From a virus (taxonomy: Duplodnaviria > Heunggongvirae > Uroviricota > Caudoviricetes): a DNA stretch of 48,664 bases. The stretch lies in IMG/VR virus record IMGVR_UViG_3300029686_000225; one strand, written 5' to 3'. Positions within the stretch are counted from its first letter, which is position 1. Every line of letters begins with the position of its first letter. The notes under the pieces are model-generated. The model saw only the letters and a program-made list of their open reading frames with translations, had not been told where the DNA came from and made no database searches. Made by a program: the position numbers and the translations under genes. This document shows positions 31,159 through 31,184 of the stretch, piece by piece.

Positions 31159-31184
31159 AAATAAAAAAGGGCCACCAGCGGCCC
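31159..31184 (-). terminator. intrinsic terminator immediately upstream of the holin RBS
   Basis: Minus strand GGGCCGCTGGTGGCCC then TTTTTTATTT. Confidence 0.55.

Follow-up and report, generated by a model that had tools for sequence, protein, structure and literature searches.

What controls transcription between the Q-like gene and the lysis genes of this prophage, and what do the terminators that lie there do? The sequence-only reading of the window (the whole stretch of 48,664 nucleotides analysed here) proposed that two terminators, one following the Q-like gene and the other immediately upstream of the holin ribosome-binding site, bracket the late region, with tRNAs and cargo genes between them, and that expression of the late genes and the cargo would depend on Q antitermination. 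Our analysis indicates that this is very probably a λ-type Q-dependent late cassette in which a cargo (moron) zone has been placed between tR' and the lysis genes. The homologies, the conservation, and the structure and distribution of the terminators given below were computed, and from them we infer promoter activity, pausing, Q loading, terminator efficiency and insulation.

The Q gene and the predicted late promoter

The gene upstream of the first terminator is, judged by homology, a λ-family Q gene, as had been suspected, and it is followed by a region that closely parallels the λ late promoter:

33298-34119, minus strand: Q antiterminator gene, 273 aa, λ Q family (Pfam PF03589, E 2.6e-50)
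33292-33259, minus strand: PR'-like late promoter, with -35 TTGATT (33292-33287), a 16-nt spacer, and TGn plus -10 TAAATT (33270-33265)
33258-33253, minus strand: predicted start site A 33258 and sigma-dependent pause element AAAGAT, followed by GGG, in the same register as in λ PR'
33217-33191, minus strand: putative tR' equivalent, a 7-bp hairpin AACCCGCCGTTGAGCGGGTT (33217-33198) followed by U6AUU TTTTTTATT (33197-33191)

The 273-aa protein matches λ Q (PDB 7UBM) with an E value of 4.8e-40 in a phmmer comparison, residues 1–113 and 183–273 being aligned; the intervening insert of about 70 extra residues (about 114–182; window 33574-33780) lies in the zinc-ribbon "arm" and adds two CxxC pairs to give four CxxC motifs (Pfam also finds a DnaJ_CXXCXGXG match within the protein). 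In λ Q the zinc-ribbon arm comprises residues 114–152 and contacts the QBE and sigma region 4 (PMC9388147). Because the arm is enlarged, the DNA site of the protein encoded here may differ from that of λ Q. Q proteins with such an arm are common, and a relative is encoded in at least 598 IMG/VR stretches; among the IMG/VR matches listed, the full-length Q of the window has 93–98% identity to hundreds of copies.

The TTGATT-16-TAAATT promoter is located 6–33 nt past the Q stop codon (33298), and the PR'-like stretch GGTAAATTTGAC aligns with λ PR'. Over the approximately 40 nt past the Q stop codon the window has GGTAAATTTGACCTAAAGATGGG and λ has GGTAAATTTGACTCAACGATGGG; the -10, the start site and the pause element match, and the predicted -10 and its flanks are identical to those of λ PR'. 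The pause element, which spans +1 to +6, is AAAGAT in the window versus AACGAT in λ. The 16-nt spacer shares only short runs with the λ spacer, and the λ QBE sits in the corresponding zone.

We compared 74 IMG/VR loci that carry the same Q. The -35 is unchanged in all 74, the -10 is identical in 72 and the 16-nt spacer in 68, while the six bases between the -10 and the start site exist in 11 variants. The pause element takes the forms AACGAT (67 loci), AATGAT (3), AAAGAT (2) and GATGAT (2), so that changes occur only at positions 1 and 3 and A2, G4, A5 and T6 are invariant; the form present in the window is thus a rare variant. The hairpin of the terminator starts 79–80 nt past the Q stop codon in 73 of these loci (80 nt in the window), and the remaining locus did not fit the pattern. 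Thirteen loop sequences are found, with a constant CCGCC/GCGGG stem core and a fixed position. This conservation fits the pattern expected for a functional unit of PR', pause element and terminator.

A Q cassette has been defined as a Q gene, PR', a sigma-dependent pause element, a terminator and then the late genes (PMC9388147). At the sequence level the window has each of these: a gene of the Q family, a PR' after it, a pause element, and a terminator followed by late genes on the same strand. Since the Q gene, PR' and the pause element directly precede it, the terminator at 33217-33191 (-11.2 kcal/mol predicted) is by its position the equivalent of tR'. Counted from the predicted start site, it extends from about +42 (first base of the hairpin) to about +68 (last base of the U tract), and without Q the transcript from PR' would be a leader of about 68 nt (33258-33191). 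Positions +7 to +40 of this leader are nearly invariant in the 74 loci, and it is predicted to fold into a 5' hairpin, an A/U-rich linker and the terminator with its U tail.

Terminators between Q and the holin gene

Both terminators of the sequence-only reading exist, on the minus strand, as hairpins followed by U tracts at 33217-33191 and 31184-31159. They enclose a 2.1-kb cargo zone, not the late region, and they are not alone in it. Three elements had been missed, the first three of the following:

32885-32858, minus strand: weak terminator at the stop codon of a TrmB-like ORF (hairpin 32885-32868; 6-bp stem, U5; -8.9 kcal/mol)
31415-31388, minus strand: terminator after ORF92 (hairpin 31415-31398; 7-bp stem, tetraloop, U6; -12.3 kcal/mol, z -4.6)
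31231-31187, minus strand: Ta, an extended hairpin (31231-31193) plus U6 (-14.7 kcal/mol), past a DUF3927 gene remnant
31184-31159, minus strand: Tb, a 5-bp GC hairpin GGGCCGCTGGTGGCCC (31184-31169) followed by U6AUUU TTTTTTATTT (31168-31159)

The hairpin at 31415-31398 is the best single one (z -4.6), and this site, Ta, Tb and the 33217 site all have the intrinsic-terminator form of a GC-rich hairpin plus a U tract. The cargo zone therefore contains at least five sense-strand terminators (33217, 32885, 31415 and the tandem 31231/31184). A purpose-written terminator finder (dG ≤ -9, at least 6 U in 8) gave six sense-strand candidates from the Q stop codon to the holin ATG, versus 1.58 ± 0.99 in 100 dinucleotide shuffles, none of which reached six, and one candidate on the antisense strand of the same interval. 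Two of the six are long hairpins within ORF92 and are probably not real. Enrichment of terminators between Q and the holin gene exceeds chance.

Two other roles for the named sites were considered and rejected. Neither belongs to a known RNA family: in Rfam searches (gathering threshold, and E ≤ 1) only the tRNAs were found, plus chance-level matches to Trp_leader (28.7 bits) and suhB/mmgR (23.1 bits) that are far below threshold. A function on the plus strand was likewise rejected, since no plus-strand gene converges on them and both hairpins lack a subsequent T tract when that strand is read.

The cargo zone

That tRNAs and cargo genes lie between the two terminators is borne out by ARAGORN, Rfam, Pfam and PHROG matches to a TrmB-like ORF, an AraC-like gene, a tRNA with a CAT anticodon, a tRNA-Lys and the ORF that we call ORF92. 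The features of the zone, in the direction of transcription, are:

33069-32872, minus strand: TrmB-like HTH ORF, 65 aa, the first cargo gene (phrog_331, E 2.5e-36; weak Pfam TrmB match)
32798-32771, minus strand: promoter-like site of the AraC-like gene, a single TATAAT-containing consensus match (weak evidence in AT-rich DNA)
32735-32022, minus strand: AraC-family regulator, 237 aa (Pfam HTH_AraC and HTH_18; phrog_1450)
32032-32005, minus strand: promoter-like site of the tRNA array, TTGATT-16-TATTAT, whose -10 ends 9 nt ahead of the tRNA 5' end
31995-31920, minus strand: tRNA with CAT anticodon (ARAGORN tRNA-Met; Rfam 72.5 bits; tRNA-Ile or tRNA-Met in the RefSeq annotation of relatives)
31918-31842, minus strand: tRNA-Lys(UUU) (ARAGORN; Rfam 33.1 bits; tRNA-Lys annotated in STEC309)
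31839-31785, minus strand: truncated tRNA-Thr, the 5' two-thirds, at the joint with the ORF92 module (Rfam 26.7 bits, below threshold)
31717-31439, minus strand: ORF92, a 92-aa cargo ORF (phrog_2873, E 2.8e-46)

The 65-aa ORF is annotated as "TrmB family" in relatives. ORF92 has no match in Pfam or PADLOC, and the AraC-like protein has none in PADLOC; the latter is a candidate link to PatE, PsrA and PsrB of O157 (PMC10877973), which we offer as a lead. The segments that hold the AraC-like gene and ORF92 have a GC content of 41%, versus 47–55% in the flanks. The TrmB-like ORF, ORF92 and the DUF3927 remnant each have a terminator after them. The AraC-like gene lacks one and leads directly into the tRNA array.

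These genes are mosaically related to those of other phages. The TrmB-like ORF, the AraC-like gene and the tRNA block have 95% identity to the Stx2k phage phiSTEC1575, in which stx2 follows the tRNAs. BLAST matches to phages and prophages that have another Q type, or different upstream genes, start exactly at the tR' hairpin (window 33221-33217; query 180-184); Q and PR' form one module, and the terminator and the TrmB-like ORF another. Mosaic joints were found exactly on terminators at 33221-33217 and also in loci L001, L002, L004 and L167, and one Q locus continues past the U tract with sequence found after λ tR'. Ahead of the TrmB-like ORF, some 70 non-coding nucleotides (window 33090-33160; …CTTGCTGGCTTTTTCGACAAGAGTTATTGGTATGTCACGTTAACC) hardly vary among five loci whose sequences before the terminator differ entirely; they may serve as a promoter/operator or belong to a longer ORF (members of phrog_331 have 111 aa).

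A recombination joint also lies inside a tRNA gene, the truncated tRNA-Thr at 31785-31839. There the alignment to the Ile/Lys/Thr/Gly tRNA array of STEC309 stops after GGTCACCAGTT (~31785), and the ORF92 module replaces the rest of the array. In P393-F10, ORF92 lies between a DNA methylase gene and TerB, which is followed by DUF3927 and then by the same holin; relative to it the window has lost TerB by deletion and has kept only the end of DUF3927, a 3'-end remnant at 31240-31330.

Promoter-like sites as a whole are not in excess (20, versus 22.1 in shuffles). The TATTAT ahead of the tRNAs is, however, present at the same distance to the tRNA in three unrelated contexts (after the AraC-like gene, after a DNA methylase gene, and in a third one), and therefore this promoter-like site appears to travel with the tRNA. 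Because the tRNAs have this conserved site of their own, cargo expression need not depend on Q. Transcription of cargo that is independent of induction is in addition usual for morons (PMC8065619), so the part of the original claim that would make the cargo dependent on antiterminated transcripts is probably too strong; read-through by Q-modified polymerase would add to cargo expression after induction. The part that concerns the late genes is supported by the homology of Q, of PR' and its pause element, of the position of tR' and of the downstream genes.

The tandem terminator ahead of the holin gene

The second of the two named terminators is indeed just ahead of the holin ribosome-binding site: Tb ends 12 nt before the AGGAG Shine-Dalgarno sequence (31156-31152) and 24 nt before the holin ATG (31144). 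Alone it is a modest hairpin (5 bp, -10.8 to -11.0 kcal/mol, with a z of only -1.6 against shuffles), and it is the second of a tandem pair because the larger hairpin and U6 of Ta lie directly upstream. We compared 84 sequences upstream of the window's holin, from 80 IMG/VR loci, three annotated relatives and the window itself. Tb is present in 71 of them (one of which was missed by the automatic pattern), and most of these also have Ta. In 21 distinct sequences, most substitutions within the stem of Tb and the inner stem of Ta turn a G-C or A-U pair into G-U, a few isolated mismatches aside (two of them in the Tb stem, each in a single sequence), and in the inner hairpin of Ta nearly all changes are wobble-compatible; there is one compensatory pair overall. 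This variation fits a conserved structure, with weak covariation support; the sequences are too close to one another and their variation too one-sided for a statistical case.

The pair could be nothing other than the leftover 3' end of TerB/DUF3927 cargo, a passenger of recombination with no selected role for the lysis genes or Q. We regard this as possible but rather doubtful. Ta/Tb does lie directly after the DUF3927 stop codon in STEC309 and P393-F10, it accompanies DUF3927 ahead of a different holin, of class II, in loci L092 and L152, and the DUF3927 remnant is still upstream of it in the window. Moreover, no nearby terminator was found in 13 of the 84 sequences upstream of the window's holin, and a terminator in this position is thus not obligatory. 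On the other hand, Tb adjoins the holin gene in phiSTEC1575-type loci even though all of the DNA upstream is unrelated, and in the window it has outlived the deletion that removed TerB. Unrelated terminators also occupy the same place ahead of other holins; other class II holin loci have at least three unrelated terminators 40–70 nt upstream, and where cargo is present at least four unrelated terminators are found 25–70 nt ahead of two different holin families.

The distance from Q to the holin gene is 436 nt in the minimal locus L148 and exceeds 4 kb at the other end of the range; the number of terminators within it is between one and eight, and the cargo includes Stx2. No terminator was found within about 110 nt upstream of the holin gene in λ, in strain B2.3 or in L148; in the last, Q and tR' are followed by 336 nt to the holin gene, and tR' is the only terminator. 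Since they are present with cargo and missing without it, the holin-side terminators are most simply read as the 3' ends of morons, with a presumed role, deduced from this distribution, in insulating the lysis genes.

The proximity of Tb to the Shine-Dalgarno sequence (12 nt) raises another explanation, that the main effect of the hairpin is post-transcriptional: it might provide 5' stabilisation or a site for processing, or mask the ribosome-binding site and so tune holin translation and the timing of lysis. The λ S gene, where upstream structure controls its two starts, provides a precedent, and in the RNAalifold prediction GGAGAA, in the ribosome-binding site, is paired with the U tract. 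This pairing consists of U-A and U-G only and is very weak, however; the site has the full form of an intrinsic terminator, in tandem with another one; and part of the ribosome-binding segment (the invariant AGGAG to the start codon) is common to loci that have no hairpin. We consider an explanation of this type quite unlikely.

Finally, the late genes might run from a Q-independent promoter downstream of the terminators, with Q and PR' as a relic. The prophage is damaged (its terL is split; see below), so regulatory decay is conceivable. Nevertheless the scan found no promoter-like site on the sense strand of 31397-31145, Q is full length and nearly identical to its many copies, and the PR' elements fit the conserved consensus except for the AAAGAT variant of the pause element; we find this most improbable. 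A second PR'-like promoter in the 210-nt gap at 31397-31185 was rejected for the same lack of a promoter-like site in that segment, which is a TerB/DUF3927 cargo remnant.

The Q-dependent cassette with a cargo zone that we favour would work as follows. In the lysogen, polymerase would start at the PR'-like promoter (~33258), pause at AAAGAT and stop at 33217-33191, leaving the leader of about 68 nt. Upon induction Q would bind between the -35 and the -10 and load onto the paused polymerase, which would become terminator-resistant, pass the five cargo-zone terminators (33217, 32885, 31415 and 31231/31184) and transcribe the holin, endolysin and head and tail genes. Q-modified polymerase disregards terminators across thousands of base pairs (PMC9388147). 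The cargo genes would be separate modules with their own terminators, and the tRNAs at least would have their own promoter. The tandem terminator would be the 3' end of the last cargo module; in the lysogen it would end cargo transcription before the lethal lysis genes are reached, and no polymerase but the Q-modified one would get past it.

Late genes and the satellite in terL

The genes that follow the tandem terminator show why the two named terminators cannot bracket the late region; both precede the late genes, and at least three further ones lie past the lysis genes on the sense strand:

31144-30752, minus strand: Phage_holin_8 (Pfam), first gene of the lysis cassette (31144-30107)
30777-30487, minus strand: Phage_holin_3_7 (Pfam)
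30490-30107, minus strand: M15 peptidase endolysin (Pfam)
30092-30064, minus strand: terminator directly after the endolysin gene (hairpin 30090-30074)
29746-29718, minus strand: further sense-strand terminator
29459-29434, minus strand: further sense-strand terminator

The terminase, portal and capsid genes are downstream of the lysis genes, also on the minus strand. Between the lysis genes and the HNH/terminase genes a plus-strand ORF of 108 aa with its own plus-strand terminator (28817-28846) occupies 28477-28846 and opposes the late operon. On the other side of Q, the nin region upstream of it (35948-39149) contains a type II restriction-modification pair, composed of a C5 cytosine methyltransferase (35948-37045) and a 703-aa GHKL-ATPase-type protein (37038-39149) that matches the PADLOC REase_II models, and a strong sense-strand terminator (35933-35912) follows the pair.

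The prophage terL gene is split by a 14.9-kb integrative element at window 11275-26210. Bases 1–1028 of the terL of an intact relative correspond to window 27238-26211 and bases 1015–1705 to 11274-10584, with the joints at 11261-11274 and 26211-26224 and the common core TTACCAA. The element encodes a P4-type integrase, Bro-N, a DUF927 primase/helicase, ProQ/FinO, capsid, prohead protease and portal proteins and a complete terL of its own; no recognised tail genes are among its largest ORFs scanned. This predicted gene content is that of a capsid-forming PICI-like satellite. The same terL-integrase joint is present in 36 of 5426 complete E. coli genomes, including those of strains 042 and UMNF18. 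The element points the same way as the late operon, so Q-modified polymerase could transcribe the portal and head genes only after passing through it, and because terL is interrupted the late operon may no longer yield phage.

Comparison with λ and the Stx phages

The region resembles the Q/PR'/6S RNA/tR' region of λ (PMC9388147) in its homologous Q, -10, start site and pause element and in the intrinsic terminator that is followed by lysis genes. It differs in that its leader is about 68 nt versus 194 nt in λ, its Q has about 70 extra residues in the zinc-ribbon arm, its tR' and holin gene are separated by the 2.1-kb cargo zone and four additional terminators, a zone that λ lacks, and its holins and endolysin are from other families (Phage_holin_8, Phage_holin_3_7 and M15 peptidase).

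Stx phages have tRNAs and cargo between tR' and the lysis cassette (PMC8065619, PMC7547250, PMC6266700), and the placement in the window is like that in 933W, the Sakai Stx phages, phiP27 and phiSTEC1575-Stx2k. The Q type of the window precedes stx2 in locus L095. Unlike these phages the window has no stx, the 92-aa ORF being in that position, and its Q type differs from the 144-aa Q that is linked to StxS (PMC7547250). The AT-rich cargo, the terminators of its own, the conserved promoter-like site of the tRNAs and the sharp mosaic joints at terminators are all like the morons of lambdoid phages (for the concept see PMC8065619); the differences are that the promoters here are predicted from the sequence and that the AraC-like gene has no terminator of its own.

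The short PR'-tR' RNA of Stx phages, StxS, has been shown to be a regulatory sRNA (PMC7547250). The predicted leader of the window would likewise be a short PR'-tR' transcript, presumably made constitutively, and it shares the terminator hairpin, the U tail and the A/U-rich linker. StxS, in contrast, is derived from a PR'-tR' unit of 258 nt in phages with the 144-aa Q, RNase E trimming it to 74 nt, whereas the RNA of the window would be about 68 nt as made. The leader matches no Rfam family, and the likeness to StxS is one of general shape only. It may be supposed that the leader is a trans-acting Hfq-type sRNA of the lysogen, an analogue of StxS from another Q lineage, and, separately, that the tandem terminator on the holin side is a selected insulator; we think this reading unlikely.

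Significance

The architecture is textbook, the ordinary late-gene switch of a λ-like E. coli prophage, as in the Stx phages. The analysis is of value mainly for annotation: in a common type of E. coli prophage it settles the strand and places the late promoter, its pause element, tR' and five terminators of the cargo zone. In some relatives this Q/PR' unit would drive stx2. The satellite in terL is of more interest than the terminator finding itself. Beyond annotation, mosaic joints have been shown to fall exactly at terminators. If the tandem terminator is truly an insulator, it would set how safely the prophage carries constitutive cargo upstream of its lysis genes. The terminators ahead of the holin gene come and go with the cargo, and this fits the idea that they protect the lysogen from leaky expression of the lysis genes.
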